From the NCBI RefSeq assembly GCF_003334315.1, contig NZ_QOWR01000056.1: DNA of 29,908 nt; one strand, given 5' to 3'. The notes under the pieces are model-generated. The model was given only the letters and a program-made list of their open reading frames with translations. It did not search any database and was not told where the DNA came from. Every line of letters begins with the position of its first letter. The first letter of the stretch is position 1. Origin of the DNA: Escherichia coli (GTDB taxonomy: Bacteria; Pseudomonadota; Gammaproteobacteria; Enterobacterales; Enterobacteriaceae). Of this stretch, positions 1 to 29,908 are shown piece by piece. Made by a program: the position numbers and the translations under genes.

Positions 1-149
1 GGTTGAGAAGCGGTGTAAGTGAACTGCAGTTGCCATGTTTTACGGCAGTGAGAGCAGAGATAGCGCTGATGTCCGGCGGTGCTTTTGCCGTTACGCACCA
101 CCCCGTCAGTAGCTGAACAGGAGGGACAGCTGATAGAAACAGAAGCCAC
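1..149 (-). CDS. insA: IS1 InsA N-terminal part (partial, runs off the window)
   Basis: GTG start at 147..149 on the minus strand; translation [49 protein letters not shown] matches the InsA N-terminus (zinc-finger CxxC...CxxC) from recall. Confidence 0.7.
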
Positions 150-204
150 TGGAGCACCTCAAAAACACCATCATACACTAAATCAGTAAGTTGGCATCAT
201 CACC
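1..204 (-). mobile_element. IS1 insertion sequence, left end (IRL plus start of insA), partial; continues beyond the window start
   Basis: Reverse complement of 1..204 matches the IS1 left end from recall (GGTGATG[A/C]TGCCAACTTACTGATTTAGTGTATGATGGTGTTTTTGAGGTGCTCCAGTGGCTTCT...), with one mismatch in the terminal inverted repeat. The bcsE reading frame changes character exactly at position 204/205. Confidence 0.85.
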
Positions 205-1183: not shown

Positions 1184-1936
1184 ATGGCCGTACTGGGATT
1201 GCAGGGGGTGCGGGGAGGCGTGGGGACAACAACCATCACCGCCGCATTAGCCTGGTCATTACAAATGTTGGGAGAAAATGTTCTGGTGGTCGATGCCTGC
1301 CCGGACAACTTGTTGCGCCTGTCATTTAATGTTGATTTTACCCACCGTCAGGGCTGGGCCAGAGCGATGCTGGATGGCCAGGACTGGCGTGACGCTGGGT
1401 TGCGCTACACCTCGCAGCTCGATTTGCTGCCTTTTGGTCAGTTATCCATTGAAGAACAAGAAAATCCACAGCACTGGCAAACCCGGCTGAGCGATATTTG
1501 CTCCGGCTTACAGCAACTAAAAGCCAGCGGGCGTTACCAGTGGATTTTAATCGACTTACCGCGTGATGCCTCGCAGATAACCCACCAGCTGCTGAGTTTG
1601 TGCGATCACTCGCTGGCAATCGTCAATGTGGATGCCAACTGCCATATCCGACTGCATCAGCAAGCGCTGCCGGATGGCGCACATATTTTGATTAATGACT
1701 TCCGTATTGGCAGTCAGGTTCAGGACGATATTTACCAGCTTTGGTTGCAAAGCCAGCGCCGATTGCTGCCGATGCTCATTCATCGTGATGAAGCGATGGC
1801 TGAATGCCTGGCGGCTAAGCAACCAGTCGGTGAATACCGCAGTGATGCGCTGGCGGCTGAAGAGATACTGACGCTGGCGAACTGGTGCCTGTTGAACTAC
1901 TCCGGGCTGAAAACGCCAGTCGGGAGTGCATCATGA
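1184..1936 (+). CDS. bcsQ: Cellulose synthase operon protein BcsQ, ParA/MinD-family ATPase, 250 aa, intact
   Basis: ORF 1184..1936; deviant Walker A GVRGGVGTTT near the N-terminus. Codon 6 is TTG (Leu), not the TAG reported for K-12. Stop overlaps the bcsA start (ATGA). Confidence 0.9.
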   Translation: MAVLGLQGVRGGVGTTTITAALAWSLQMLGENVLVVDACPDNLLRLSFNVDFTHRQGWARAMLDGQDWRDAGLRYTSQLDLLPFGQLSIEEQENPQHWQTRLSDICSGLQQLKASGRYQWILIDLPRDASQITHQLLSLCDHSLAIVNVDANCHIRLHQQALPDGAHILINDFRIGSQVQDDIYQLWLQSQRRLLPMLIHRDEAMAECLAAKQPVGEYRSDALAAEEILTLANWCLLNYSGLKTPVGSAS

Positions 1937-4551: not shown

Positions 4552-4561
4552 TGATAACGCG

Positions 4562-11000: not shown

Positions 11001-11469
11001 CCTGAACAACATGATCTGGCATTACGACAAAGATCTGAGTGACTACTCACTCGGTCAGGGCGGTTACTACAGTCCGCAGGAATACCTGTCGTTTGCCATA
11101 CCGGTGATGTGGCGGGAGCGCACGGAAAACTGGTCGTGGGAGCTGGGTGCGTCTGGCTCGTGGTCGCATTCACGCACCAAAACCATGCCGCGTTATCCGC
11201 TGATGAATCTGATCCCGACCGACTGGCAGGAAGAAGCTGCGCGGCAATCCAACGATGGCGGCAGCAGTCAGGGCTTCGGCTACACGGCGCGGGCATTACT
11301 TGAACGACGTGTTACTTCCAACTGGTTTGTTGGCACGGCAATTGATATCCAGCAGGCGAAAGATTACGCACCCAGCCATTTCCTGCTCTACGTACGTTAT
11401 TCCGCCGCCGGATGGCAGGGTGACATGGATTTACCGCCGCAGCCGCTGATACCTTACGCCGACTGGTAA
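7996..11469 (+). CDS. bcsC: Cellulose synthase outer-membrane/TPR subunit BcsC, 1157 aa
   Basis: ORF 7996..11469 with AGGA Shine-Dalgarno; signal peptide, Ala/Leu/Gln-rich TPR-like N-terminal two thirds and a Gly/Ser/Trp/Tyr-rich beta-barrel-like C-terminus; overlaps the bcsZ 3' end by 19 nt. Confidence 0.9.
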
Positions 11470-11550
11470 GTTTTCAGATAGCGCCTCTCTTAATGCCGCT
11501 GCGATCGGGTATACTCGGGCGGCAATCTGGGATTTCCGGGGGGAGACAAT

Positions 11551-13539
11551 TTGCGCGTAAGTCGCTCGTTAACAATCAAGCAGATGGCAATGGTGGCAGC
11601 CGTTGTCCTGGTGTTCGTTTTTATTTTTTGCACCGTTTTGCTGTTCCATCTGGTCCAGCAGAATCGCTATAACACGGCTACGCAACTGGAAAGCATTGCT
11701 CGCTCTGTCCGCGAACCCTTATCTTCAGCTATTTTGAAAGGCGATATTCCCGAAGCGGAAGCTATTCTTGCCAGCATTAAACCGGCAGGCGTGGTCAGCC
11801 GTGCCGATGTAGTGCTGCCTAACCAGTTCCAGGCGCTGCGTAAAAGTTTTATTCCAGAGCGCCCGGTGCCGGTAATGGTTACTCGCCTGTTTGAGCTACC
11901 GGTTCAAATCTCGCTGGGCGTTTACTCGCTCGAACGTCCGGCAAACCCGCAGCCAATTGCCTATCTGGTACTACAGGCGGATTCCTTCCGTATGTATAAG
12001 TTCGTGATGAGCACCCTCTCAACGTTAGTGACCATTTACTTACTTTTGTCGCTTATCCTGACCGTCGCCATCAGCTGGTGCATTAACCGCCTGATTTTGC
12101 ATCCGTTACGCAATATTGCTCGCGAACTTAACGCCATCCCAGCCAAGGAGCTTGTTGGTCACCAACTGGCATTACCGCGTCTGCATCAGGACGATGAAAT
12201 CGGTATGTTGGTGCGCAGTTACAACCTCAACCAGCAATTGCTGCAGCGCCATTATGAAGAACAGAACGAAAATGCGATGCGCTTCCCGGTGTCGGATTTG
12301 CCGAACAAAGCCTTGCTGATGGAGATGCTGGAGCAGGTTGTCGCGCGTAAACAAACCACCGCGCTGATGATCATCACCTGTGAAACCCTGCGTGATACTG
12401 CGGGCGTGCTGAAAGAGGCGCAACGAGAAATTCTGCTGCTGACGCTGGTGGAAAAACTCAAATCGGTACTGTCGCCACGTATGATCCTCGCGCAGATTAG
12501 CGGTTATGACTTTGCTGTCATTGCCAACGGTGTACAGGAACCGTGGCACGCAATCACCTTAGGTCAGCAAGTGCTCACTATCATGAGCGAGCGCCTGCCG
12601 ATTGAACGTATTCAACTCCGTCCGCACTGTAGCATTGGCGTGGCGATGTTCTACGGCGATCTCACCGCCGAACAGCTTTACAGTCGCGCTATTTCTGCGG
12701 CATTTACCGCTCGCCATAAAGGCAAGAATCAGATTCAGTTCTTTGATCCGCAGCAGATGGAAGCCGCCCAGAAGCGGTTGACGGAAGAGAGCGATATCCT
12801 TAATGCACTGGAAAATCATCAGTTTGCTATTTGGTTACAGCCACAGGTCGAGATGACCAGCGGAAAACTGGTCAGTGCGGAAGTGTTACTGCGTATCCAG
12901 CAACCGGATGGCAGTTGGGACCTGCCGGATGGCTTAATCGATCGCATTGAGTGCTGTGGGCTGATGGTTACCGTCGGTCACTGGGTGCTGGAAGAGTCCT
13001 GTCGATTGCTTGCAGCCTGGCAAGAGCGCGGCATTATGCTGCCCTTGTCGGTAAACCTCTCTGCGCTGCAACTGATGCACCCAAATATGGTGGCGGATAT
13101 GCTGGAACTGTTAACCCGCTATCGCATTCAGCCGGGAACACTGATTCTGGAAGTGACAGAAAGCCGACGTATTGACGACCCTCATGCTGCGGTGGCAATC
13201 CTCCGTCCGCTGCGCAATGCCGGAGTTCGGGTGGCGCTGGATGATTTCGGCATGGGCTACGCAGGGCTGCGTCAGCTGCAGCATATGAAATCGTTGCCAA
13301 TCGACGTACTGAAAATCGACAAAATGTTTGTTGAAGGCTTGCCGGGAGATAGCAGCATGATTGCTGCAATTATCATGCTGGCGCAGAGCCTGAACTTACA
13401 AATGATTGCCGAAGGCGTGGAGACTGAAGCACAACGCGACTGGCTGGCAAAAGCGGGCGTTGGTATTGCCCAGGGCTTCCTTTTTGCTCGCCCACTCCCT
13501 ATTGAAATCTTCGAAGAGAGTTACCTGGAAGAAAAGTAG
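11551..13539 (+). CDS. pdeK: c-di-GMP phosphodiesterase PdeK (YhjK): transmembrane/HAMP, degenerate GGDEF and EAL domains
   Basis: ORF 11551..13539 from a TTG start preceded by GGGGGGAGA; an alternative ATG lies at 11584. Degenerate GGDEF-position motif SGYDF and EAL-position motif EVL visible in the translation. Confidence 0.8.
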
Positions 13540-13564
13540 CTACCCCAAACTGATTACAAAACTT

Positions 13565-13618
13565 TAAAAAGTGCTGGTTTGTGCGAGCCAGCTCAAACTT
13601 TTTAACCTTTTTGTTTCA
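13565..13618 (+). terminator. Imperfect extended palindrome plus T-rich tract between pdeK and dctA; candidate pdeK terminator and/or dctA upstream regulatory site (CRP-like TGTGC-N6-GCTCA)
   Basis: ttaaaaagt-gctgg-tttgtgcga-gccagc-tcaa-actttttaa, followed by cctttttgtttc. Both readings are inference. Confidence 0.3.
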
Positions 13619-13685
13619 ATTATGATCCAGGTACATTTCTGTGATGTTGTCTGGGTGTTATTTTAAGGCCGCAGGTACCCCATAA

Positions 13686-15008
<1,323 letters not shown>

Positions 15009-15021
15009 TCTCATCACTTAT

Positions 15022-15109
15022 GCCCGCACTCCCTTCCCCGAGTGCGGGTGTTTGCGCATAATTGACCCCTGTGCCTGAACTTACCACCTGGGTGAGTTCA
15101 GGTTTATTT
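15022..15109 (+). terminator. Two tandem stem-loops downstream of dctA; the second is a strong intrinsic-terminator candidate
   Basis: Hairpin 1 at 15022..15049 (gcccgcactc / gagtgcgggt, 8-nt loop). Hairpin 2 at 15074..15102 (cctgaacttacc / ggtgagttcagg, about 12 bp) followed by tttattt. Confidence 0.5.
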
Positions 15110-15228
15110 CACTTCTTCCGTGACATTTTCATGTTCTTGCGGTCTAACACGAAGTGTTTTTAACGTCATTTAGACTGACCGACAACGGGCAGTTTTTTTA
15201 TTACCAGGATAGTTGATCAGGGGTTCAC

Positions 15229-16725
15229 ATGCAGGGCACAAAAATTCGACTTTTAGCGGGCGGTTTGCTGATGATGGCCACTGCTGGCTATGTGCAGGCA
15301 GATGCGCTCCAGCCTGATCCAGCATGGCAACAGGGGACGCTTTCCAACGGTTTACAGTGGCAAGTGCTGACCACCCCCCAGCGTCCCAGCGATCGTGTTG
15401 AAATTCGCCTGCTGGTTAATACCGGTTCGCTCGCCGAAAGTACACAACAGAGCGGTTACAGTCACGCCATCCCTCGTATTGCGCTAACGCAAAGCGGTGG
15501 CCTTGACGCAGCACAGGCGCGTTCATTGTGGCAGCAGGGGATCGACCCTAAACGCCCGATGCCGCCGGTAATTGTCTCTTATGACACCACGCTGTTTAAT
15601 CTGAGTTTGCCCAATAACCGTAACGATTTGCTGAAAGAAGCGCTCTCTTATCTGGCAAATGCCACTGGCAAATTGACCATCACACCAGAAACCATCAACC
15701 ACGCGCTGCAAAGTCAGGACATGGTGGCAACCTGGCCTGCCGATACTAAAGAGGGCTGGTGGCGCTATCGTCTGAAAGGGTCAACCTTGTTAGGTCACGA
15801 TCCTGCCGATCCGCTGAAACAACCCGTTGAAGCGGAAAAAATTAAAGATTTCTATCAGAAATGGTACACCCCGGATGCAATGACGCTACTGGTGGTGGGA
15901 AACGTGGATGCGCGCTCGGTTGTCGACCAAATAAACAAAACGTTTGGCGAACTGAAAGGCAAACGTGAAACGCCAGCTCCGGTGCCGACGCTTTCTCCGC
16001 TGCGTGCGGAAGCGGTGAGTATTATGACTGACGCGGTGCGTCAGGACCGGTTATCTATCATGTGGGATACGCCGTGGCAGCCGATTCGTGAATCAGCCGC
16101 ACTGCTGCGCTACTGGCGTGCGGACCTGGCCCGCGAGGCGCTGTTCTGGCATGTTCAGCAAGCGTTAAGCGCCAGTAACAGCAAAGACATCGGTCTTGGA
16201 TTTGACTGCCGTGTGCTGTATCTGCGTGCGCAGTGTGCCATCAACATCGAATCACCAAACGACAAGCTGAACAGCAACCTTAATCTGGTGGCGCGTGAAC
16301 TGGCGAAGGTTCGCGATAAAGGTCTGCCGGAAGAAGAGTTCAATGCGTTAGTGGCGCAAAAGAAACTGGAGCTGCAGAAACTGTTTGCCGCCTATGCACG
16401 AGCTGATACCGATATTCTGATGGGTCAGCGGATGCGTTCGTTGCAAAATCAGGTTGTCGATATCGCGCCGGAGCAATATCAGAAACTGCGGCAGGATTTC
16501 CTTAATAGCCTGACGGTAGAGATGTTAAATCAGGATCTGCGTCAACAGTTGTCGAATGATATGGCGTTAATACTGCTGCAGCCGAAAGGCGAGCCGGAAT
16601 TTAACATGAAAGCGTTGCAGGCGGTCTGGGATCAAATCATGGCCCCATCTACCGCCGCTGCGACCACCTCTGTCGCCACGGATGACGTACATCCTGAAGT
16701 GACGGATATTCCACCTGCACAGTAA
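15229..16725 (+). CDS. yhjJ: YhjJ, periplasmic M16-family (pitrilysin-like) protein, 498 aa
   Basis: ORF 15229..16725 with signal peptide MQGTKIRLLAGGLLMMATAGYVQA; identified from recall of K-12 YhjJ. No HxxEH zinc motif in the translation. Confidence 0.9.
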   Translation: MQGTKIRLLAGGLLMMATAGYVQADALQPDPAWQQGTLSNGLQWQVLTTPQRPSDRVEIRLLVNTGSLAESTQQSGYSHAIPRIALTQSGGLDAAQARSLWQQGIDPKRPMPPVIVSYDTTLFNLSLPNNRNDLLKEALSYLANATGKLTITPETINHALQSQDMVATWPADTKEGWWRYRLKGSTLLGHDPADPLKQPVEAEKIKDFYQKWYTPDAMTLLVVGNVDARSVVDQINKTFGELKGKRETPAPVPTLSPLRAEAVSIMTDAVRQDRLSIMWDTPWQPIRESAALLRYWRADLAREALFWHVQQALSASNSKDIGLGFDCRVLYLRAQCAINIESPNDKLNSNLNLVARELAKVRDKGLPEEEFNALVAQKKLELQKLFAAYARADTDILMGQRMRSLQNQVVDIAPEQYQKLRQDFLNSLTVEMLNQDLRQQLSNDMALILLQPKGEPEFNMKALQAVWDQIMAPSTAAATTSVATDDVHPEVTDIPPAQ

Positions 16726-16726
16726 T

Positions 16727-16766
16727 GCCTGATGGTGATGAGTTAGCACAACCATCAGGTATTTAT
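16727..16766. terminator. Stem-loop between convergent yhjJ and kdgK, possible shared terminator
   Basis: cctgatggt ... accatcagg, 9-bp stem with 14-nt loop, followed by tatttat. Confidence 0.35.
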
Positions 16767-16820
16767 GGATGAGCTGGATAGAGGGGTAACACTTTATCCA
16801 GCCTTTTGCATATGCTGCGT

Positions 16821-17750
16821 TTACGCTGGCATCGCCTCACGCGGGATAATCGCGCCGCGATACTGAATAACGGTACTTGCGGTCAGGTGCCCACGTTTCG
16901 CCGCGTCTTCCGCGCTGCCGCCTGTCAGACGTACCGCCAGATAACCGGCACTGAAAGAGTCGCCAGCTGCGGTGGTATCGATCACTTTTTCTTTCGGCAG
17001 TTTCACCGCCGGAACATCCACTAACCCTTCGCCAGCAATGGACACCAGGCAAGAATCCGCCCCGCGTTTCACCACCACTTCTTTCACGCCCGCGTTATGG
17101 GTGCGCGCAATGACGTCTTCCACCGGCTGTTGACCCCACAGCGCGTCTTCGTCGTCCAGCGTCAGGAAGGCGATATCCGTGCATTCCAGCATTTGTTGGT
17201 ACACCTGCTGTGTCTCTTCTTTGCTGGCCCACAGGCGCGGACGATAGTTATTGTCGAAAATCACTTTTCCGCCGTTGGCGCGGCATTCGCGCAGCAGGGA
17301 AAGCAGCTTTTCGCGGCTGGTCGGGCTTAAGATCGCCAGGCTAATCCCGCTCAGGTAGAGATAATCGAAATTCGCCAGCTCTTCGCAAATCGCCGCAGAC
17401 TGCTCACTCTCCAGCCAGAATTTGGCGGCGGCTTCGTTCCGCCAGTAGTAGAACGTACGCTCGCCGGTGCTGTCGGTTTCAATGTAGTAAAGGCCCGGCA
17501 GACGGTTTTCCATCCGTTGGGTCAGGGAAGTATCAACGTTCTCGCCGTGCCAGGCGTCCAGCATCTGCTGGCTAAAACTGTCCGTTCCCAGCGCCGTTAC
17601 GTAATGAACGGTTAATGCCGCAGGATCGACCTGACGGGCGATATAGACGGAAGTGTTCAGGGTATCGCCGCCGAAACCGCGCTTAACGTCCGCGCCTTTC
17701 TCGGAAAGCTCAATCATGCATTCGCCAATCACGGCAATCTTTTTGGACAT
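16821..17750 (-). CDS. kdgK: 2-dehydro-3-deoxygluconokinase KdgK (PfkB family), 309 aa
   Basis: ATG at 17748..17750 on the minus strand (MSKKIAVIGECMIELSEKG...), within the longer track ORF 16821..18098; length matches K-12 KdgK from recall. Confidence 0.9.
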   Translation of the reverse strand: MSKKIAVIGECMIELSEKGADVKRGFGGDTLNTSVYIARQVDPAALTVHYVTALGTDSFSQQMLDAWHGENVDTSLTQRMENRLPGLYYIETDSTGERTFYYWRNEAAAKFWLESEQSAAICEELANFDYLYLSGISLAILSPTSREKLLSLLRECRANGGKVIFDNNYRPRLWASKEETQQVYQQMLECTDIAFLTLDDEDALWGQQPVEDVIARTHNAGVKEVVVKRGADSCLVSIAGEGLVDVPAVKLPKEKVIDTTAAGDSFSAGYLAVRLTGGSAEDAAKRGHLTASTVIQYRGAIIPREAMPA

Positions 17751-17816
17751 AGTCGTGAACCTGATCTGTAAAAAATTAGCGTTAGTTTGCGCTGTGGTGG
17801 TTTGCTGGTCAACCAT

Positions 17817-17835
17817 ATTAAAACAGTGTTCCATT
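17817..17835. promoter_or_regulatory. Candidate KdgR operator upstream of kdgK
   Basis: attaaaacagtgttccatt matches the remembered KdgR box AATRAAAYRNYRTTTYATT at about 16 of 18 defined positions; 67-85 bp upstream of the kdgK ATG. Confidence 0.4.
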
Positions 17836-17906
17836 ATTTTTTTGAGCCAGAACGTATTCCTGAAAGATTCCGTTGTGGAGTGAGGAAATTTACCCCGGCC
17901 AGGCGG

Positions 17907-17933
17907 TAAAGTTCTGCCCTTACGCGCCGATAA
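17907..17933 (+). promoter_or_regulatory. Sigma28 (FliA) class 3 flagellar promoter for pdeH
   Basis: TAAAGTTC - 11 nt - GCCGATAA, essentially the sigma28 consensus (TAAAGTTT-N11-GCCGATAA), about 50 bp upstream of the pdeH ATG. Confidence 0.7.
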
Positions 17934-17981
17934 TCTTTGTCGAGTCCGGGCAGCATCACTTTTAAACACAGGACATCTTTG

Positions 17982-18749
17982 ATGATAAGGCAGGTTATCC
18001 AGCGAATAAGCAACCCTGAAGCAAGCATCGAGAGCTTGCAGGAACGGCGTTTTTGGTTGCAGTGTGAGCGTGCTTACACCTGGCAGCCGATCTATCAAAC
18101 ATGCGGGCGGTTAATGGCCGTGGAGCTATTAACGGTGGTCACGCATCCCTTGAACCCTTCGCAACGCCTGCCGCCGGATCGCTATTTTACTGAAATCACC
18201 GTCAGCCATCGGATGGAGGTTGTGAAAGAGCAGATTGATTTGCTGGCGCAAAAAGCCGACTTCTTTATAGAGCACGGCCTGCTGGCATCGGTCAATATTG
18301 ATGGCCCTACGCTCATCGCCCTGCGTCAGCAACCAAAAATCCTGCGCCAGATTGAGCGTCTTCCCTGGCTGCGTTTCGAACTGGTGGAGCATATCCGTCT
18401 GCCGAAAGATTCAACCTTTGCCTCGATGTGTGAATTTGGCCCGCTGTGGCTGGATGATTTTGGTACCGGGATGGCAAATTTCTCTGCGCTAAGTGAAGTG
18501 CGTTATGACTACATCAAAATCGCGCGAGAACTGTTTGTGATGCTGCGTCAGTCGCCGGAAGGACGCACACTCTTTTCTCAGCTTTTACATCTAATGAATC
18601 GCTATTGTCGCGGGGTGATTGTCGAGGGCGTAGAAACGCCGGAAGAGTGGCGTGATGTTCAGAACTCGCCCGCATTCGCCGCACAAGGCTGGTTTCTTTC
18701 ACGCCCGGCACCGATAGAAACGCTGAATACGGCGGTTCTGGCGCTATAA
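17982..18749 (+). CDS. pdeH: c-di-GMP phosphodiesterase PdeH (YhjH), EAL-only, 255 aa
   Basis: ATG at 17982 (MIRQVIQRISNPEASIESLQERRFWLQ...) inside track ORF 17937..18749; EAL-position motif ELL and DDFGTG motif visible. Confidence 0.9.
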   Translation: MIRQVIQRISNPEASIESLQERRFWLQCERAYTWQPIYQTCGRLMAVELLTVVTHPLNPSQRLPPDRYFTEITVSHRMEVVKEQIDLLAQKADFFIEHGLLASVNIDGPTLIALRQQPKILRQIERLPWLRFELVEHIRLPKDSTFASMCEFGPLWLDDFGTGMANFSALSEVRYDYIKIARELFVMLRQSPEGRTLFSQLLHLMNRYCRGVIVEGVETPEEWRDVQNSPAFAAQGWFLSRPAPIETLNTAVLAL

Positions 18750-18818
18750 GCTGCCTCATTTTCCGCCTGGCTGGACTATCTTTAGGACTGGCACAGGAAG
18801 AATATGAGGAAGCGAACG

Positions 18819-20879
18819 ATGAGCAAGGCAGGCAAAATAACCGCTGCGATTTCAGGGGCTTTCTTGTTGTTGATTGTCGTGGCGATCATTTTGATTGCAA
18901 CTTTTGACTGGAATCGACTCAAACCGACTATCAACCAGAAAGTCTCTGCGGAGTTGAATCGTCCGTTCGCTATCCGTGGCGATCTGGGCGTGGTGTGGGA
19001 GCGGCAAAAACAAGAAACTGGCTGGCGCAGCTGGGTGCCGTGGCCCCATGTACACGCGGAAGACATCATTCTTGGCAATCCACCGGATATTCCCGAAGTC
19101 ACGATGGTGCATTTGCCACGCGTAGAGGCAACGCTGGCCCCGCTGGCGCTGCTGACCAAAACGGTCTGGCTGCCGTGGATCAAGCTCGAAAAGCCCGACG
19201 CGCGCCTGATTCGCCTCTCTGAAAAGAACAATAACTGGACGTTTAATCTTGCCAACGATGATAACAAAGACGCGAATGCAAAGCCGTCGGCATGGTCGTT
19301 TCGGCTGGATAATATTCTTTTCGATCAAGGGCGGATCGCCATTGATGACAAAGTAAGCAAAGCGGATCTGGAGATTTTTGTTGATCCCTTAGGCAAGCCG
19401 CTGCCGTTCAGCGAAGTTACTGGATCGAAAGGTAAAGCGGATAAAGAAAAGGTGGGCGATTACGTTTTTGGCCTGAAGGCGCAGGGACGATATAACGGTG
19501 AACCGCTCACGGGTACGGGAAAAATAGGCGGTATGCTGGCGCTGCGTGGCGAAGGGACGCCGTTTCCGGTACAGGCTGATTTCCGCTCTGGTAACACCCG
19601 TGTTGCTTTTGATGGCGTCGTGAATGACCCAATGAAGATGGGCGGTGTCGATTTACGGCTTAAATTTTCTGGCGATTCACTGGGTGATCTCTATGAACTG
19701 ACGGGCGTTCTGCTGCCCGATACCCCGCCGTTTGAAACGGATGGTCGGCTGGTAGCGAAAATCGACACTGAAAAATCGTCGGTCTTTGATTATCGCGGTT
19801 TTAATGGGCGAATTGGTGATAGCGATATCCACGGTTCTCTGGTCTACACCACCGGAAAGCCACGACCAAAACTGGAAGGTGATGTCGAGTCGCGGCAATT
19901 GCGGCTGGCGGACCTGGGACCGTTGATTGGCGTTGATTCCGGGAAAGGGGCAGAAAAGTCGAAACGGTCTGAACAGAAGAAGGGCGAAAAAAGCGTTCAG
20001 CCTGCGGGCAAAGTGCTGCCTTATGACCGCTTCGAAACCGATAAATGGGACGTTATGGATGCCGATGTTCGCTTCAAAGGGCGGCGCATTGAGCATGGCA
20101 GTAGCCTGCCGATTAGCGATCTTTCTACTCATATCATCCTCAAAAATGCTGACCTGCGCCTGCAACCGCTGAAATTTGGCATGGCGGGCGGCAGCATTGC
20201 GGCGAATATTCATCTGGAAGGCGATAAAAAGCCGATGCAGGGGCGGGCAGATATTCAGGCTCGTCGACTGAAACTGAAAGAACTGATGCCCGATGTGGAA
20301 CTGATGCAGAAGACGCTGGGGGAAATGAACGGTGACGCGGAACTACGCGGTAGCGGTAACTCGGTGGCGGCACTTTTAGGCAACAGTAACGGCAACCTGA
20401 AACTGTTGATGAATGACGGGCTGGTGAGCCGCAACCTGATGGAGATTGTTGGGCTGAATGTCGGCAACTACATTGTCGGTGCGATATTTGGTGATGATGA
20501 GGTGCGGGTGAACTGCGCGGCGGCGAATCTGAATATTGCCAACGGCGTGGCGCGCCCGCAGATTTTTGCTTTCGATACTGAGAACGCGTTGATTAATGTT
20601 ACCGGCACGGCAAGTTTTGCTTCGGAACAGCTGGATTTGACTATTGATCCGGAGAGTAAAGGAATTCGGATTATCACACTGCGTTCGCCGCTGTATGTGC
20701 GGGGGACGTTTAAAAATCCGCAGGCTGGGGTGAAAGCCGGACCGCTGATTGCCCGTGGTGCTGTTGCTGCGGCACTGGCAACGCTGGTAACACCGGCGGC
20801 GGCGTTACTGGCACTGATCTCACCTTCCGAAGGGGAGGCTAATCAGTGTCGGACGATTTTGTCGCAGATGAAGAAGTGA
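18819..20879 (+). CDS. yhjG: AsmA-family inner-membrane-anchored protein YhjG (about 686 aa)
   Basis: ORF 18804..20879; ATG at 18819 (MSKAGKITAAISGAFLLLIVVAIILIATFDWNRLKP) matches the remembered K-12 start; an in-frame ATG 5 codons upstream (18804) has a better Shine-Dalgarno, so the start is uncertain. Confidence 0.8.
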   Translation: MSKAGKITAAISGAFLLLIVVAIILIATFDWNRLKPTINQKVSAELNRPFAIRGDLGVVWERQKQETGWRSWVPWPHVHAEDIILGNPPDIPEVTMVHLPRVEATLAPLALLTKTVWLPWIKLEKPDARLIRLSEKNNNWTFNLANDDNKDANAKPSAWSFRLDNILFDQGRIAIDDKVSKADLEIFVDPLGKPLPFSEVTGSKGKADKEKVGDYVFGLKAQGRYNGEPLTGTGKIGGMLALRGEGTPFPVQADFRSGNTRVAFDGVVNDPMKMGGVDLRLKFSGDSLGDLYELTGVLLPDTPPFETDGRLVAKIDTEKSSVFDYRGFNGRIGDSDIHGSLVYTTGKPRPKLEGDVESRQLRLADLGPLIGVDSGKGAEKSKRSEQKKGEKSVQPAGKVLPYDRFETDKWDVMDADVRFKGRRIEHGSSLPISDLSTHIILKNADLRLQPLKFGMAGGSIAANIHLEGDKKPMQGRADIQARRLKLKELMPDVELMQKTLGEMNGDAELRGSGNSVAALLGNSNGNLKLLMNDGLVSRNLMEIVGLNVGNYIVGAIFGDDEVRVNCAAANLNIANGVARPQIFAFDTENALINVTGTASFASEQLDLTIDPESKGIRIITLRSPLYVRGTFKNPQAGVKAGPLIARGAVAAALATLVTPAAALLALISPSEGEANQCRTILSQMKK

Positions 20880-20882
20880 TGA

Positions 20883-20911
20883 TAATTGCCGGATGTCTGA
20901 CATCCGGCAAT
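20883..20911. terminator. Perfect 14-bp-arm palindrome immediately after the yhjG stop; candidate terminator or REP-derived hairpin
   Basis: aattgccggatgtc-t-gacatccggcaatt; no clear U-tract. Confidence 0.4.
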
Positions 20912-20950
20912 TAAACAGATTTAGATTGTTGGCAAAGTGTGCTTTGTTCA

Positions 20951-21047
20951 TGCCGGATGCGGCGTGAACGCCTTATCCGGCCTACAAATCCTTGCGAATT
21001 CAATATATTGTATGGAAATTCAGGCCTGATAAGCGTAGCGCATCAGG
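20951..21047. repeat. REP (repetitive extragenic palindromic) pair forming a BIME-like element between convergent yhjG and yhjE
   Basis: gccggatgcggcgtgaacgccttatccggcctac at 20951..20984 and inverted REP-like aggcctgataagcgtagcgcatcaggc at 21021..21047. Confidence 0.6.
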
Positions 21048-21060
21048 CTTTTCACTCTTA

Positions 21061-22383
21061 TTACAACGACTGATGTCGCGTCTCATGGGTCAGCAGCAGG
21101 GCGATTAACGTCAAGCCAGCCATCGCCGCCAGATATAACCCCACCGCACCTAGCCCGTAGTTAGTCTGCAACCAGGCTGCGATATATGGCGCAACGGAAG
21201 CCCCGAGAATCGACGCTACGTTGTAAGAGAACGATGCTCCGGTGTAACGCACTTCTGTTGGAAACAGCTCTGGTAACAGCGCACCCATTGGCCCGAAGGT
21301 CAGACCCATCAGACTTAACCCCAGCAGCAGGAAGGCAAAAACCAGAATCGGGTTGCCAGAACCGAGCAGTGGGTTAAAGGCGAACAGCGCGAACAGGATG
21401 ATCAGCGTGGTGATGATTACCATGCTTTTACGGCGACCAAAGGCATCAGCCAGTAATCCAGCGACTGGCACCATCACGCCAAAACCAATAACTGCCATCA
21501 TCAACATCCACAACACTTCGTTACGCGGCAGGCCAAGCCCAACTGGCGCGGCGGCGGTACTAAAGGTCATAGAGTAGACCGTCATGATGTAAAACAGCGT
21601 ATAGGTTGCCAGCATAATGAACGTACCCAGTACGGTTACGCGAACATGTTTGGTCAGCAGCGTACCCAGCGGGATCTTCACCTGTTTTTTCGCTTTAGCG
21701 ACTTTCTCAAACACCGGCGACTCATGCAGCGACACGCGAACATACAGGCCGATAATGACCAGCACCGCCGAGAAGATAAATGGCACACGCCAGCCCCAGC
21801 TCATAAACTGCTCGTCGGTCAGTAGCCAGGAAAGCAGCAAGAAAGTGCCATTGGCAAAGAAGAAGCCAATCGGTGCGCCCAGCTGCGGAAAGGAGCCATA
21901 CAGTGCACGTTTGCGCGGTGGGGCGTTTTCAGTCGCCAGCAGCGCCGCGCCGCCCCATTCACCGCCTAAGCCCAGACCCTGACCAAATCGAGCCAGCGCC
22001 AGCAGCAGCGGGGCGAAAATACCAATCGTGGCATAGCCCGGCAGCAGACCAATCACCACGGTCGAAATCCCCATCGTTAGCAACGAGGCGACCAGCGTCG
22101 CTTTACGCCCAACGCGATCGCCAAAATGACCAAAAACGGCAGAGCCAATGGGGCGCGCGACGAAGGCGATGGCGAAGGTGGCGAGCGACTGTAGCGTTGC
22201 TGCCGTAGGATCGCCCTGCGGGAAGAAGATATGCGGAAACACAATAACGGCCGCAGTGGCGTAAATGTAAAAGTCGAAGAACTCAATGGCTGTGCCAATG
22301 AGAGAGGCGACAAGGACTTTATTACGCGAGTTGATCGGCGTGTATTCTTGCTCGTGGTCGAGTGTTGTGGCTGTTGCTTGCAT
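21061..22383 (-). CDS. yhjE: MFS-family transporter YhjE, 440 aa
   Basis: ORF 21061..22383 on the minus strand; multi-pass hydrophobic protein with MFS-type GxxxDRxGRR-like motif (GHFGDRVGRK). Confidence 0.9.
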   Translation of the reverse strand: MQATATTLDHEQEYTPINSRNKVLVASLIGTAIEFFDFYIYATAAVIVFPHIFFPQGDPTAATLQSLATFAIAFVARPIGSAVFGHFGDRVGRKATLVASLLTMGISTVVIGLLPGYATIGIFAPLLLALARFGQGLGLGGEWGGAALLATENAPPRKRALYGSFPQLGAPIGFFFANGTFLLLSWLLTDEQFMSWGWRVPFIFSAVLVIIGLYVRVSLHESPVFEKVAKAKKQVKIPLGTLLTKHVRVTVLGTFIMLATYTLFYIMTVYSMTFSTAAAPVGLGLPRNEVLWMLMMAVIGFGVMVPVAGLLADAFGRRKSMVIITTLIILFALFAFNPLLGSGNPILVFAFLLLGLSLMGLTFGPMGALLPELFPTEVRYTGASFSYNVASILGASVAPYIAAWLQTNYGLGAVGLYLAAMAGLTLIALLLTHETRHQSL

Positions 22384-22695
22384 AATCTTTTCTTATTTTT
22401 TGGCTAACGAATAGCCATATTACGCACAGCAAAAGTGATATTTCAATGTGTAACAAATCGCGGAAATGGTCAAAAATCAGGCAAAAAGGGGATAATGTTT
22501 AGGCCAGTGATTTTTCTTCTATGAAATGCTTCACATAATTTTATAAATAGTGGATAAAACTGGTTTCAGGTTAAATAAAAGTTACCAACTGGATTTATAT
22601 GCTGGGGTTATGAGTTGGAATGAAATTGTTTGCTCCCAAATAGATGGCTGAAGAGGCTCTGGGGACGAGTTTCAAGAGGTTATGTGCGCATTATA

Positions 22696-22792
22696 GCCGG
22701 ATGCGATGCTGGCGCATCTTATCCGGCCTACGGGGAGCCAGGCCGAATAAAATCGTATGCCGGATAAGGCGTTTACGCCGCATCCGGCCTAT
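22696..22792. repeat. REP pair (BIME-like) between yhjD and yhjE
   Basis: gccggatgcgatgctggcgcatcttatccggcctac at 22696..22731 and inverted atgccggataaggcgtttacgccgcatccggcctat at 22757..22792. Confidence 0.6.
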
Positions 22793-22793
22793 T

Positions 22794-23807
22794 TTAAGGC
22801 TGCGTTTTCCCCGGCATTCGCGGGTCGTCTTTATATTCGGCGGTGGCAATCCACGCCGCGCAAAACAGCGTCAAACGGGCGAAGAAGTAGAAAAATGCCA
22901 TCAGCCCCAGCACGGAACCAAATGCTGCGCCAGAGGGGGATTTCATCAACGATGGCAGGGTGTAGGTCATCACGATTTTAATCACTTCAAAACCAATAGC
23001 AGCCAGAAATGTTCCGCGAATCAGGGCTTTTTTGCGCGGACGGTGGCGCGGCAACCGCCAGAAGATCCAGAAGAAAAGCAGATAGTTGGCGAAGATGGAA
23101 ATCGCCAGGCCAATCAATCGCCACGTCGGTTTCAGCCACTCAATGCTGTTCAGGTGCAGGGCGCTAATAATCATTTGCTGCGCCGAACCGGCAACCGAGG
23201 TGATCGAAAGCGTCACAATCAGCGCAATCAACAAACCAATCAGCGAAATAAAATCTCGCAGATATTTTACCCAGAACTTCTCCTGATCTTGCGGCGAGCG
23301 TTCCCAGACATCGCGCGACTGGGCACGAATCGCTTCACGCAGGTTACCCATCCAGTTGATGCCGGAATAAAGTGCCACCGCCAGGCCGACAAGCCCTACA
23401 GTCGTACGCTGCTGAACGGCGGTGTTGATGGTGTTTTTCAACGTGGCGGCTAGCGTCGGATCGCTGATGTTTTGCAGAATTTTGTCGAAGATATCCTGTA
23501 GCAACATCGGATGGGAGGCCAGCACAAAGCCCCCTGCGGCAAACGACACCATCAAAATTGGTATCATCGACAAAAATGAGAAATAGGTGATAGCCGCACC
23601 AAACTGGTTACCCAGCCGATCGTTAAAGCGTTCTGTCGCGCGAATCAGGTGCGCAATAACCGGTTGGCGTTGGACTTTTTCGGCAGTGGTGGTGACGGTT
23701 TCCAGCGCCTGGCTAACTTTGCTGCCTTTCTCGCTATTATCCAACGGCTTAATCGGCTCGTGCTCCAGATCCTGGATGGGACGTTTGATCTCGTTTTCCT
23801 GCGTCAT
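22794..23807 (-). CDS. yhjD: Inner membrane protein YhjD (YihY/BrkB family), 337 aa
   Basis: ORF 22794..23807 on the minus strand, translation MTQENEIKRPIQDLEHEPIKPLDNSEKGSK... followed by multiple hydrophobic segments. Confidence 0.9.
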   Translation of the reverse strand: MTQENEIKRPIQDLEHEPIKPLDNSEKGSKVSQALETVTTTAEKVQRQPVIAHLIRATERFNDRLGNQFGAAITYFSFLSMIPILMVSFAAGGFVLASHPMLLQDIFDKILQNISDPTLAATLKNTINTAVQQRTTVGLVGLAVALYSGINWMGNLREAIRAQSRDVWERSPQDQEKFWVKYLRDFISLIGLLIALIVTLSITSVAGSAQQMIISALHLNSIEWLKPTWRLIGLAISIFANYLLFFWIFWRLPRHRPRKKALIRGTFLAAIGFEVIKIVMTYTLPSLMKSPSGAAFGSVLGLMAFFYFFARLTLFCAAWIATAEYKDDPRMPGKTQP

Positions 23808-23855
23808 CCGCTCTTTTGTCCTTCTGTCGTGGTCATTCTTAAAAAGTATAGTCGG

Positions 23856-24755
23856 TCAGTCCAGGTACTCTTTCATTACGCCAGCCAGCCACTGCATAAA
23901 CAGGTTTACACGCCGGGAAAGCTCCCGACGCTGCGGATAAACCAGCGAAAGGGAGAGCGGCTCGGCACGGTAGCCAGGTAATACTTCAATAAGCCGCCCG
24001 GCACGCAGGGCTTCGCGCACGGCAATGCGCGGGATCTGAATAATCCCCAGACCGGCAAGACCGGCGGTGAGATAGTTTTCGCTACTGTTTACCGTCAACA
24101 TGCCGCCAGACTTAAACCACTGGACGCCATTAACGCTGGCAACCTCAAAACCTAACGGATGTACACCCAGGTGCGGTGTATAACGCACTATTGCGTGTGA
24201 AGTCAGATCATCGGGGCTTTGCGGATAACCAAAGCGCGTCAGATAGTGCGGACTGGCACAGTTGACCATGGTCAGTTTGCCGAGGGGACGGGCGATAACG
24301 CCATCTTCCGGTAACGCGCCAGTGCGTATCACGCAATCAAAACCATCATGAAGAATATCTACCGGACGGTCATGGCTACTCAGTTCCAGCTCAATTCCCG
24401 GATGCAGATAGAGAAATTCCGACAGGCGCGGCAGTAACAGGCTTTTCGCGATTCCTGGCGGGATGTCGATGCGTAATTTACCGCTGATACTGGTGGCATC
24501 CTGTTGAAACAGACCGTCCAGTTCGCTGAGATTACTCAACACATCTTTTGCTCGTTGATAATAGGTCATGCCTTCTGGCGTGAGTTTGACCCGTCGCGTG
24601 GTGCGCTGGAGAAGCTGGGTGCCAAGTTGATGTTCCAGTGCCTGTATCTGGCGCGAAACACTTCCCTTTGGCAAAGCAAAGAAATCCGCTGCGCGGGAAA
24701 AACTTTCCAGCTCCGCGACTTTGATGAACAACTGCATTGCGTGAATTTTATCCAT
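23856..24755 (-). CDS. yhjC: LysR-type transcriptional regulator YhjC (about 299 aa)
   Basis: ATG at 24753..24755 (MDKIHAMQLFIKVAELESFSRAADFFALPKGSVSRQIQALE..., N-terminal HTH); the track ORF extends 24 codons further upstream to 24827 and neither start has a clear Shine-Dalgarno. Confidence 0.8.
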   Translation of the reverse strand: MDKIHAMQLFIKVAELESFSRAADFFALPKGSVSRQIQALEHQLGTQLLQRTTRRVKLTPEGMTYYQRAKDVLSNLSELDGLFQQDATSISGKLRIDIPPGIAKSLLLPRLSEFLYLHPGIELELSSHDRPVDILHDGFDCVIRTGALPEDGVIARPLGKLTMVNCASPHYLTRFGYPQSPDDLTSHAIVRYTPHLGVHPLGFEVASVNGVQWFKSGGMLTVNSSENYLTAGLAGLGIIQIPRIAVREALRAGRLIEVLPGYRAEPLSLSLVYPQRRELSRRVNLFMQWLAGVMKEYLD

Positions 24756-25274
24756 TTCTTTGACCGATTGTTGTTCACAGCGAAACAGTAACGCGCATAT
24801 CGCATTGTTTATTGTTTTTTCTAACATCTAATGCCGGGTTTCACAATGTTGTCATGCCGAATGTGGCGATTTCTCAGCAGGAAAAGGGCGGAATAGCTTT
24901 CTGAGAAAGGTGAATCCCCTTAAACAGAGCGTATTTTTCAGCGATTCCCTTTAAAGTGAACAGAGGACGTGTTGGCTATTTGTGCTTATTTTTGTCTCCT
25001 TGCCGTTTGTTATTTTGGCTTGTGGTCGCGGAATTTCATTTTTAATTGCATGCGTACTAACCAACAATATAAGGAAATCCTCAAAATTGTTTTAAATAGT
25101 GCCCTCGACATGTAATTTCAGGCGTTTAGCTGTAACTATTTATATCGGTAACTATTTTCTACACGTCATCTCTGTAGAATGGCCACCGCCAAATGGCGAA
25201 TTCTTATTTTTTCTCGCGGGTAATACCCTTCCACTACTTAAGTCTTTTTAACGTATTCAGGTGGAGATTCAGTT

Positions 25275-25877
25275 ATGCAAATAGTCATGTTTGACAGGCA
25301 GTCAATATTTATTCATGGAATGAAAATCAGTTTACAGCAGCGTATTCCAGGAGTGAGTATTCAGGGGGCCAGTCAGGCAGACGAGTTATGGCAAAAGCTG
25401 GAAAGTTACCCTGAAGCCTTAGTTATGCTCGATGGCGATCAGGATGGTGAGTTTTGCTACTGGTTGCTGCAAAAAACCGTGGTGCAATTTCCTGAGGTTA
25501 AGGTGTTAATTACGGCGACGGATTGCAATAAACGGTGGTTACAGGAAGTTATCCATTTTAATGTGCTGGCCATTGTGCCTCGTGATTCAACCGTCGAGAC
25601 ATTTGCGTTGGCGGTAAATAGTGCGGCGATGGGGATGATGTTTCTGCCTGGAGACTGGCGGACGACGCCGGAAAAGGACATTAAAGATCTCAAATCGTTA
25701 AGCGCCCGCCAGCGGGAGATTTTAACCATGTTAGCGGCGGGCGAATCAAATAAGGAGATCGGCAGAGCGCTGAATATCAGTACCGGAACGGTAAAAGCGC
25801 ATCTGGAATCCCTGTATCGCCGTCTGGAAGTGAAAAATCGCACCCAGGCGGCAATGATGTTAAATATCTCCTCCTGA
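25275..25877 (+). CDS. yhjB: LuxR/FixJ-family response-regulator-like transcription factor YhjB, 200 aa
   Basis: ORF 25275..25877; C-terminal LuxR-type HTH (LSARQREILTMLAAGESNKEIGRALNISTGTVKAHLESLYRRLEV). Confidence 0.9.
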   Translation: MQIVMFDRQSIFIHGMKISLQQRIPGVSIQGASQADELWQKLESYPEALVMLDGDQDGEFCYWLLQKTVVQFPEVKVLITATDCNKRWLQEVIHFNVLAIVPRDSTVETFALAVNSAAMGMMFLPGDWRTTPEKDIKDLKSLSARQREILTMLAAGESNKEIGRALNISTGTVKAHLESLYRRLEVKNRTQAAMMLNISS

Positions 25878-25886
25878 AGAGGATAA

Positions 25887-25924
25887 TTTTACAGCCAGCA
25901 GGAAGTTAGCGGCTGGCTGTAAAA
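25887..25924. terminator. 13-bp perfect inverted repeat between convergent yhjB and treF; possible bidirectional terminator
   Basis: ttttacagccagc - 12 nt - gctggctgtaaaa; the U/A tracts form the stem base rather than a trailing U-tract, so function is uncertain. Confidence 0.35.
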
Positions 25925-25927
25925 ATA

Positions 25928-27607
<1,680 letters not shown>

Positions 27608-27859
27608 TTATCGGCTTTTCTTTAAGGGTAGTCATTCGCTCCGCCTGGTGGGCGACAAAGCGTGCGGTGGATCACGTTTATTAACCTGTCAAAAAATATA
27701 ACGCACTAATATCAATGGAATTTATAAAAATACCGATTTGGTGTTGTTTTTCATTTTCAGAACATTCAATCCTGCTCTCGCCGCAATCATGATATGCCAT
27801 TCCTGATCTGGGTAATAGGCACAGGCTATCTTATTGATAGTTTATATTCATGTAATTGA

Positions 27860-27873
27860 TTGATTCCTATCAA
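27860..27873 (+). promoter_or_regulatory. FNR-type binding site upstream of yhjA
   Basis: ttgat-tcct-atcaa is a perfect match to the FNR consensus TTGAT-N4-ATCAA, about 107 bp upstream of the yhjA ATG. Confidence 0.6.
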
Positions 27874-27980
27874 AAAGCGTATCTCCCTGTTTTTTATGAT
27901 GGCTTTGTCTCGCAGAGACGTTTGCAGCATTCTGGAAAATTTTCTGGGTCACAATAACTCACCACCGTGAGGGAAGAATA

Positions 27981-29378
27981 ATGAAAATGGTCTCACGTAT
28001 TACCGCGATCGGCCTGGCTGGCGTCGCGATTTGCTATTTAGGGTTATCTGGTTATGTGTGGTACCACGATAATAAACGCAGTAAACAGGCCGATGTTCAG
28101 GCATCTGCTGTCAGTGAAAATAATAAGGTTTTAGGCTTTCTCCGCGAAAAAGGATGCGACTATTGCCACACGCCTTCGGCAGAATTACCCGCCTATTATT
28201 ATATTCCTGGCGCGAAACAGTTGATGGATTACGACATTAAGCTTGGATATAAATCTTTTAACCTTGAGGCCGTGCGTGCGGCACTGCTGGCTGATAAACC
28301 CGTTTCGCAAAGCGATTTGAATAAGATTGAATGGGTGATGCAGTATGAAACTATGCCACCAACGCGTTATACCGCGCTACACTGGGCGGGTAAGGTGAGT
28401 GATGAAGAGCGGGCGGAAATACTGGCCTGGATTGCAAAACAGCGCGCGGAATATTACGCCAGCAATGATACTGCTCCGGAACATCGCAATGAACCGGTGC
28501 AGCCCATCCCGCAAAAACTGCCTACCGATGCGCAAAAAGTGGCGTTGGGTTTTGCGCTGTATCACGATCCCCGTTTATCGGCTGATAGCACCATTTCATG
28601 CGCTCATTGCCATGCGTTGAATGCGGGGGGCGTCGATGGCAGAAAAACATCGATTGGTGTTGGTGGCGCAGTTGGGCCGATTAACGCGCCGACGGTATTT
28701 AACTCAGTATTTAACGTTGAGCAGTTCTGGGATGGTCGTGCGGCAACATTGCAGGATCAGGCTGGTGGACCGCCGTTGAACCCGATTGAAATGGCGTCGA
28801 AATCCTGGGACGAAATTATTGCTAAGCTGGAAAAAGATCCGCAGCTTAAAACGCAGTTCCTCGAAGTCTATCCGCAAGGTTTCAGTGGCGAAAATATTAC
28901 TGATGCCATTGCTGAATTTGAGAAAACATTAATTACGCCGGATTCCCCATTTGATAAATGGTTGCGCGGAGATGAAAATGCGCTGACGGCGCAACAGAAA
29001 AAAGGCTATCAATTATTTAAAGATAATAAATGTGCAACTTGTCATGGTGGTATTATTCTCGGCGGACGTTCCTTTGAACCGTTGGGGCTGAAAAAAGACT
29101 TTAACTTTGGGGAAATTACGGCGGCGGATATTGGTCGTATGAATGTGACTAAAGAAGAGCGTGATAAATTGCGTCAGAAAGTACCCGGTTTACGTAACGT
29201 TGCTTTAACGGCACCGTACTTCCATCGCGGTGACGTGCCGACGCTGGACGGGGCGGTGAAACTGATGCTGCGCTATCAGGTAGGCAAAGAGCTGCCGCAG
29301 GAGGATGTGGATGATATCGTAGCTTTCCTGCACAGTCTGAACGGGGTGTACACGCCGTATATGCAGGATAAACAATAA
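27981..29378 (+). CDS. yhjA: Tri-haem cytochrome c peroxidase YhjA (Ccp), 465 aa
   Basis: ORF 27981..29378 with GAGGGAAG Shine-Dalgarno; N-terminal membrane anchor; three CxxCH haem motifs (CDYCH, CAHCH, CATCH). Confidence 0.9.
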   Translation: MKMVSRITAIGLAGVAICYLGLSGYVWYHDNKRSKQADVQASAVSENNKVLGFLREKGCDYCHTPSAELPAYYYIPGAKQLMDYDIKLGYKSFNLEAVRAALLADKPVSQSDLNKIEWVMQYETMPPTRYTALHWAGKVSDEERAEILAWIAKQRAEYYASNDTAPEHRNEPVQPIPQKLPTDAQKVALGFALYHDPRLSADSTISCAHCHALNAGGVDGRKTSIGVGGAVGPINAPTVFNSVFNVEQFWDGRAATLQDQAGGPPLNPIEMASKSWDEIIAKLEKDPQLKTQFLEVYPQGFSGENITDAIAEFEKTLITPDSPFDKWLRGDENALTAQQKKGYQLFKDNKCATCHGGIILGGRSFEPLGLKKDFNFGEITAADIGRMNVTKEERDKLRQKVPGLRNVALTAPYFHRGDVPTLDGAVKLMLRYQVGKELPQEDVDDIVAFLHSLNGVYTPYMQDKQ

Positions 29379-29387
29379 TTAATTTGA

Positions 29388-29421
29388 TCGCCCGAACAGC
29401 AATGTTTGGGCGATTTTTATT
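29388..29421 (+). terminator. Rho-independent terminator of yhjA
   Basis: tcgcccgaaca-gcaa-tgtttgggcga (11-bp stem with one G-U pair, GCAA loop) followed by tttttatt. Confidence 0.65.
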
Positions 29422-29489
29422 ACGATAATAAAGTCTGTTTTTAATATTATCATGTTAAATGTTTATATTATAAAAAGTCGTTTTTCTGC

Positions 29490-29509
29490 TTAGGATTTTG
29501 TTATTTAAA
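29490..29509 (+). promoter_or_regulatory. GAD box (GadE binding site) of the gadA promoter
   Basis: Exact 20-mer TTAGGATTTTGTTATTTAAA, about 80-100 bp upstream of the gadA ATG. Confidence 0.8.
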
Positions 29510-29588
29510 TTAAGCCTGTAATGCCTTGCTTCCATTGCGGATAAATCCTACTTTTTTATTGCCTTCAAATAAATTTAAGGAGTTCGAA

Positions 29589-29908
29589 ATGGACCAGAAG
29601 CTGTTAACGGATTTCCGCTCAGAACTACTCGATTCACGTTTTGGCGCAAAGGCCATTTCTACTATCGCGGAGTCAAAACGATTTCCGCTGCACGAAATGC
29701 GCGATGATGTCGCATTTCAGATTATCAATGATGAATTATATCTTGATGGCAACGCTCGTCAGAACCTGGCCACTTTCTGCCAGACCTGGGACGACGAAAA
29801 CGTCCATAAATTGATGGATTTGTCGATCAATAAAAACTGGATCGACAAAGAAGAATATCCGCAATCCGCAGCCATCGACCTGCGTTGCGTAAATATGGTT
29901 GCCGATCT
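29589..29908 (+). CDS. gadA: Glutamate decarboxylase GadA, N-terminal part (runs off the window end)
   Basis: ATG at 29589 after TAAGGAG; translation [78 protein letters not shown]...; called gadA rather than gadB because it sits next to yhjA. Confidence 0.9.

Follow-up and report, generated by a model that had tools for sequence, protein, structure and literature searches.

Upstream of gadA, the 29,908-nucleotide stretch of Escherichia coli DNA analysed here (the window) carries a 210-bp intergenic region at 29379..29588, and the question that it raises is how much of this DNA serves gadA and how much belongs to the gene before it, ccp (formerly yhjA). A first-pass annotation, made from the letters alone, had described the whole region as a canonical gadA control region, beginning with an intrinsic terminator of yhjA and followed by an exact GAD box. 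The reading that we prefer, with a probability of about 0.93, is that the region consists of two independent modules, a ccp terminator and a gadA promoter activated by RcsB/GadE. The region of the predicted ccp terminator and the gadA promoter is already known and ordinary, and is the same as in the K-12 reference.

Identity of the ccp-gadA region

The last 609 bases of the window (29300-29908) are 100% identical to E. coli K-12 MG1655, and a window position is converted by subtracting it from 3697169, which gives the K-12 coordinate. The K-12 annotation names the flanking genes ccp (b3518) and gadA (b3517), with treF on the other side. The ATG of gadA (29589..29591) comes directly after the end of the intergenic region (Table 1). 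The identity of the ccp-gadA alignment over these 609 bases confirms that the downstream gene is gadA and, with the terminal gene fixed in this way, that the window ends in the acid-resistance gad region, both as first proposed. Complete E. coli genomes match the region in 5426/5426 cases, with at least 80% of it covered in 5412. Its GC content is 0.286, against 0.523 for the whole window, and drops to 0.189 in 29416..29489. Rfam scans (27400..29908 at E <= 1 and the whole window at gathering thresholds) found no known RNA family in the intergenic region. The minus strand also holds a 48-aa open reading frame (29510..29656) that covers the start of gadA; no feature is annotated at this place in K-12, and we discarded it as spurious.

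Table 1. Features of the ccp-gadA region, in window coordinates
Feature	Position	Strand	Basis and remarks
ccp unit (promoter, CDS, hairpin)	27769..29433	+	Escherichia sp. E1V33 and E. whittamii lack the entire block (blastn)
ccp (yhjA) CDS, cytochrome c peroxidase	27981..29378	+	465-aa open reading frame; stop TAA 29376..29378; identical K-12 DNA is ccp b3518
Stem-loop, predicted intrinsic terminator of ccp	29386..29415	+	13 pairs (6 G-C), loop GCAA 29399..29402; terminator scan and RNA fold
U-tract TTTTTATTAC	29414..29423	+	Predicted RNA 3' end here; sequence and terminator scan; first two T are also outermost stem partners
Two in vivo GadX ChIP-exo peaks	29424..29443 (-127.5), 29445..29465 (-106)	.	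PMC4918353 Supplementary Table 3
GadX/GadW motif match AAGTCTGTTTTTAATATTAT	29431..29450	+	18/20 versus ChIP-exo motif AKGKCTGWTWTTWWYMYVAK
GAD box TTAGGATTTTGTTATTTAAA	29490..29509	+	Exact 20/20 match; -72..-53 from the transcription start
-35 element TTGCTT	29526..29531	+	16 bp beyond the GAD box, in agreement with PMC2887963
RcsB box GGATAAATCCTA, approximate limits	29539..29550	+	Published RcsB repressor box; overlaps -10; G/C difference at 29539
-10 element TACTTT	29549..29554	+	From the published transcription start and -35; 17-bp spacer; C at 29548 before it
gadA transcription start (+1)	29562	+	Four published primer ends; 27 nt before ATG
Shine-Dalgarno AAGGAG	29577..29582	+	Sequence; 6 nt before ATG
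gadA (glutamate decarboxylase A), first 320 nt	29589..29908	+	100% identical to K-12 b3517; cut by the window end

Elsewhere in the window, the DNA is that of a strain other than MG1655. About 125 substitutions relative to K-12 lie between 959 and 11042 (the bcsQ to bcsC side), compared to 5 in the remaining 18.9 kb (11043..29908), a mosaic distribution suggestive of recombination with a boundary near 11 kb. Positions 1..201 are the end of an IS1 inserted in bcsE (junction at ~201/202), a gene that runs from 711 down on the minus strand. Its product agrees with K-12 over ~170 aa, after which the reading enters IS1 and meets stop codons. Of 5426 complete E. coli genomes, 21 cover at least 80% of a 420-bp query that spans the junction. 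The bcsQ gene (1184..1936, plus strand) is intact, as its codon 6 (1199..1201) is TTG (Leu), while that of K-12 is TAG and the gene is annotated there as a pseudogene. The strain appears to be bcsQ+ but bcsE::IS1, and its cellulose synthesis is possibly disabled by another route than in K-12.

The hairpin downstream of ccp as a predicted terminator

The hairpin starts 8 nt past the ccp stop codon, on the same strand. Its RNA folds at -20.8 kcal/mol, whereas shuffled sequences reach -6.8 ± 2.3 kcal/mol (z = -6.08; 0/200 shuffles were as good). In the terminator scan, TTTATTACGA comes directly after the 29386..29415 stem, and the U-rich run TTTTTATT occupies 29414..29421, immediately 3' of it. 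The strong hairpin with U-tract that had been placed at 29388..29421 is thus present, at most 2 nt from where it was drawn, and the call of an intrinsic terminator for yhjA agrees with the stable stem-loop, the U-rich tract and the same-strand gene end found here. Like canonical Rho-independent terminators of enterobacteria, the element has a GC-rich stem of 11-13 bp, a 4-nt loop and a U-rich tract, all just past a stop codon; it differs from them in that the U-tract is interrupted (TTTTTATT) and in that it is a predicted terminator. Natural variants of the U-tract are one T shorter or have one T changed to C. Termination in both directions was also considered and rejected, as no T-run follows the stem on the reverse strand (CAAATTAATTA) and no convergent gene is present.

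Among eight Escherichia sequences, pairing is kept in 98.1% of cells, compared to 24-48% in slid registers, and the homologous hairpins fold at -16 to -22.6 kcal/mol. E. albertii and divergent E. coli both retain the pairing. Of the five hairpin substitutions within E. coli, two lie in the loop (29400, 29402) and the other three leave pairing intact (29386 G>A, 29407 T>C, 29411 C>T), being of the types G-U to or from G-C and G-U to A-U. Four pairs vary among the eight sequences, each on one side only, with 0 double-sided compensatory changes; the conservation of pairing is therefore supportive but not proof, as it could reflect low divergence.

The supplements of two E. coli Term-seq studies (PMC7815308 and PMC12207403) contain no measured RNA 3' end for ccp/yhjA or for K-12 coordinates 36677xx. 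This would favor the improbable reading that the hairpin is no terminator and is either a REP/BIME-like repeated extragenic element or an mRNA-stabilising 3' stem-loop only, since protection from exonucleases is also a role of stem-loops at mRNA 3' ends. The repeat family is ruled out by copy number: REP/BIME elements have many copies per genome, but the hairpin is found as a single copy in 5413/5426 E. coli genomes, at one place each and never more. The U-tract, with T at 7/8 positions directly 3' of the stem, speaks against a stabiliser only, and termination and stabilisation are compatible with each other. The missing 3' end is probably explained by the state of ccp, which is probably silent in aerobic cultures such as those of the Term-seq studies. 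Judged by title and abstract, a full-text literature search brought up no relevant report on a yhjA-gadA terminator. From sequence and conservation we infer that the hairpin would terminate ccp transcription efficiently and so would insulate gadA from yhjA read-through; this is the standing of the insulation that the first-pass annotation had asserted.

To a related proposal we give slightly less credence still, namely that the ccp hairpin terminates only in part or only under some conditions, and that induction of ccp lets some transcripts continue into gadA-gadX. The inducer would be anoxia plus H2O2, acting via FNR and OxyR. If this were true, glutamate decarboxylase and GadX would be expressed independently of GadE, and peroxide respiration would be linked to acid resistance. 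The two-module reading, in which the hairpin ends the ccp transcript, is the one that we carry forward.

Linkage of the hairpin to ccp

Two species bear directly on the question of which gene the hairpin serves. Escherichia sp. E1V33 and E. whittamii have no ccp, and in both treF adjoins gadA. Homology to the window (blastn) ends at 27768 in these species and restarts at 29434, and both retain the gadA control region from that position on (-128..+27), including the exact GAD box. Where ccp is gone the hairpin is gone too, and the gadA control region stays; this points to two modules that are independent of each other and meet at about 29433/29434. Judged by this comparison of sequences, the predicted terminator is part of ccp and not of gadA control. 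In place of window block 27769..29433, the ccp-less species carry ~150 bp of unrelated DNA between treF and the gadA promoter; the region concerned in Escherichia sp. E1V33 is 4177..4576 of its locus sequence.

That the hairpin is instead part of gadA control, for example as a far-upstream regulatory element, is very unlikely. The fragment used for GadX binding assays does begin at -176, which is the first hairpin base (PMC3050690), but the ccp-less species do without the hairpin and keep the gadA promoter, the GadX ChIP-exo peaks begin at 29424, past the stem, and a -101..+24 fragment gives both GadE activation and RcsB repression (PMC2887963).

Two further genomes show the region in altered settings. 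In the uropathogenic strain E. coli 536 (NC_008253.1), the annotation gives ccp as a pseudogene with a frameshift, and the hairpin and the gadA promoter are intact. In the clinical isolate E. coli GYB01 (NZ_CP125731.1), an IS1 (1628..2412 of the extracted locus) separates the predicted ccp terminator from the gadA promoter. Its target site is window 29428..29436, with a 9-bp target duplication (ATAAAGTCT), and the insertion point coincides with the module boundary at 29433/29434. The IS1 borders the GadX motif on its left, where the duplicated copy leaves the motif intact beside gadA.

The gadA promoter and the gadB alternative

The start of gadA transcription is fixed by two independent pairs of published primers, of which -101/+24 (PMC2887963) end at 29461/29585 and -176/+77 (PMC3050690) at 29386/29638. 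All four ends give +1 = 29562, and the ChIP-exo distances give 29561. The core promoter, TTGCTT-17-TACTTT, agrees with the sigma-70 consensus TTGACA-17-TATAAT at 6/12 positions, short of the threshold of at least 9/12, and is absent from the scan list. Such a poor match is expected of an activator-dependent promoter. RpoS involvement is marked "Yes" for gadA in published data, which fits sigma-S dependence. In the AT-rich spacer the scan lists three sigma-70-like sites (29441..29469 on the plus strand, 29474..29446 and 29453..29425 on the minus strand), which were treated as chance, since 7 sites were found where 5.0 ± 2.3 were expected. In a supplementary expression table of PMC4918353, gadA has FPKM values of 2266.61 and 26.12 (log2 ratio -6.44).

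Upstream of the GAD box, the GadX/GadW ChIP-exo motif AKGKCTGWTWTTWWYMYVAK (PMC4918353) has its sole match in the window, where 0.07 matches are expected by chance. The two GadX peaks, given as 3665749-3665768 and 3665727-3665747 of NC_000913.2 (PMC4918353 Supplementary Table 3), were mapped by a shift of +1977 to NC_000913.3 and then by the conversion given above, and their stated distances from the transcription start agree with 29561/29562. The evidence for these GadX sites is ChIP-exo. The AT-rich intervening DNA had been described as typical of the gadA promoter; its low GC content stands, but the DNA is not merely typical promoter sequence, as the mapped GadX sites lie inside it.

The control region shows no difference from the K-12 gadA promoter (PMC2887963), with which it shares the whole intergenic sequence, the box position, the 16 bp to the -35 element, the RcsB box and the 27-nt leader; the strain differs from MG1655 elsewhere in the window. 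With the E. coli gadBC promoter it has in common the exact GAD box, CTTGC in the -35 element, GATAAATCCTACTTTTTT, the Shine-Dalgarno sequence and the 99 nt from box start to ATG. What sets the gadBC promoter apart is the sequence between box and -35 element, the DNA before the box, details of the 5' UTR and the first codons; its upstream neighbor is pqqL, with a hairpin of its own, versus ccp at gadA. That hairpin, in the K-12 pqqL-gadB interval just past pqqL, reads GCCCCGTCAAC...GTTGGCGGGG and is followed by ATTTT (4330..4420 of the extracted locus, minus strand). Both gad promoters lie behind a terminator-like stem-loop of a same-strand upstream gene, and the two hairpins are unrelated in sequence.

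This likeness raises the alternative that the downstream gene is gadB and the region the gadBC promoter, the outcome under which the first-pass gene assignment would have had to change. The GAD box, -35, RcsB box/-10 and Shine-Dalgarno elements are common to both promoters at identical spacing, and the region query finds two matching places in every E. coli genome. We nevertheless regard the gadB assignment as hardly tenable: the upstream neighbor is ccp and not pqqL, the identity to K-12 gadA is 100%, and three features are of the gadA type: the 16 bp that separate box and -35 element, the 5' UTR, and the opening codons, which read MDQKLL where gadB has MDKKQV. The two genes differ in codons 3, 5, 6 and 9, among others.

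The GAD box and its conservation

The GAD box of the E. coli K-12 gadA promoter was reportedly a subject of Castanie-Cornet & Foster in 2001. The earlier claim of an exact 20-bp box at 29490..29509 proved correct: the reference 20-mer, as quoted in PMC4918353, is matched at every position, and this is the sole match in the 29.9-kb window even when 3 mismatches are allowed. None of the dinucleotide-preserving shuffles (0/100) matched. The box is also where it is expected relative to gadA, as its centre at -62.5 and the 16 bp (29510..29525) to TTGCTT fit the published description of a box centred 63 bp upstream of the start and 16 bp upstream of the -35 element (PMC2887963). In that work, the box is bound by the RcsB/GadE heterodimer while GadE alone does not bind, the RcsB plus GadE DNase I footprint covers -76..-50 (window 29486..29512), and the M1 point mutation of the box abolishes activation (PMC2887963). 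An in vivo GadE ChIP-exo peak at 3665681-3665709 of NC_000913.2, labeled "Act" at -64 (PMC4918353), corresponds to window 29483..29511, and the GadE signal at gadA is weak (S/N 1.48). GadE occupancy and the requirement for the GAD box were thus published on identical DNA, and our part was the coordinate mapping.

A scan for the exact box in one genome per species found eight Escherichia loci, which come from E. albertii, Escherichia sp. E1V33, E. whittamii and two representatives named E. coli. The exact 20-mer also occurs in three unrelated metagenome-assembled genomes (Lentisphaeria, Bacteroidales), and these non-Escherichia matches were treated as chance. Read by eye from its first base, the 20-mer gives the frame L-G-F-C-Y-L and may be coding in these genomes; the frame resembles a Sel1/TPR-type repeat motif. 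Across ~300 Gb, an exact 20-mer match is in itself no evidence for a GAD box.

When ten gadA- and gadB-type Escherichia promoters were aligned, the GAD box, CTTGC, GATAAATCCTAC-T6 and TTAAGGAGTT were invariant, while the 16-bp spacer beside the box varied freely. The invariance of the box in the scanned loci is circular because an exact box match selected them; that of CTTGC, GATAAATCCTAC and TTAAGGAGTT is free of this bias. Six further comparisons, with E. coli genomes chosen by blastn similarity to the region and not by the box, gave 0 substitutions in the GAD box, -35 element, RcsB box and -10 element. Five of these six were among the most divergent in a spread of the 210-bp intergenic matches listed, and one had the weakest 52-nt hairpin match.

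The chance that the 20-mer is an accidental match in AT-rich DNA, without function, is practically nil: the three metagenomic occurrences lend it some color, but no shuffle matched, K-12 gadB carries an identical box at the same position and spacing, footprint, ChIP-exo and mutational data exist for identical DNA, and published mutagenesis refutes it (PMC2887963).

Proposed mechanism and meaning

The ccp gene is under FNR/OxyR control. In the two-module reading, the first module (29379..29433) would be the 3' end of the ccp transcript. Its GC-rich 13-bp hairpin and U-tract would release the ccp mRNA ~40 nt past the stop codon, and this release may keep FNR/OxyR-controlled transcription from running into gadA. 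The second module (29434..29588, -128..+27) is the gadA promoter, with a weak sigma-70/sigma-S core. Here the RcsB/GadE heterodimer on the GAD box switches gadA on, with the GadX/GadW sites at ~-106 and ~-128 assisting activation. At high concentration RcsB represses gadA via the box that overlaps the -10 element, and H-NS silences the AT-rich DNA of the promoter. For this second module, the steps come from published experiments of other groups on DNA with the window's sequence. The activator centre at -62.5 is typical of class I activation, so that the activator probably touches the C-terminal domain of the RNA polymerase alpha subunit.

The value of these results is mainly one of annotation. 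They assign the terminator, whose function is still a predicted one, to ccp and not to gadA control, identify the gene at the window end as gadA and give exact coordinates for every published control element. As a discovery they carry little weight, because the GAD box and the gadA promoter are textbook elements of glutamate-dependent acid resistance in E. coli.
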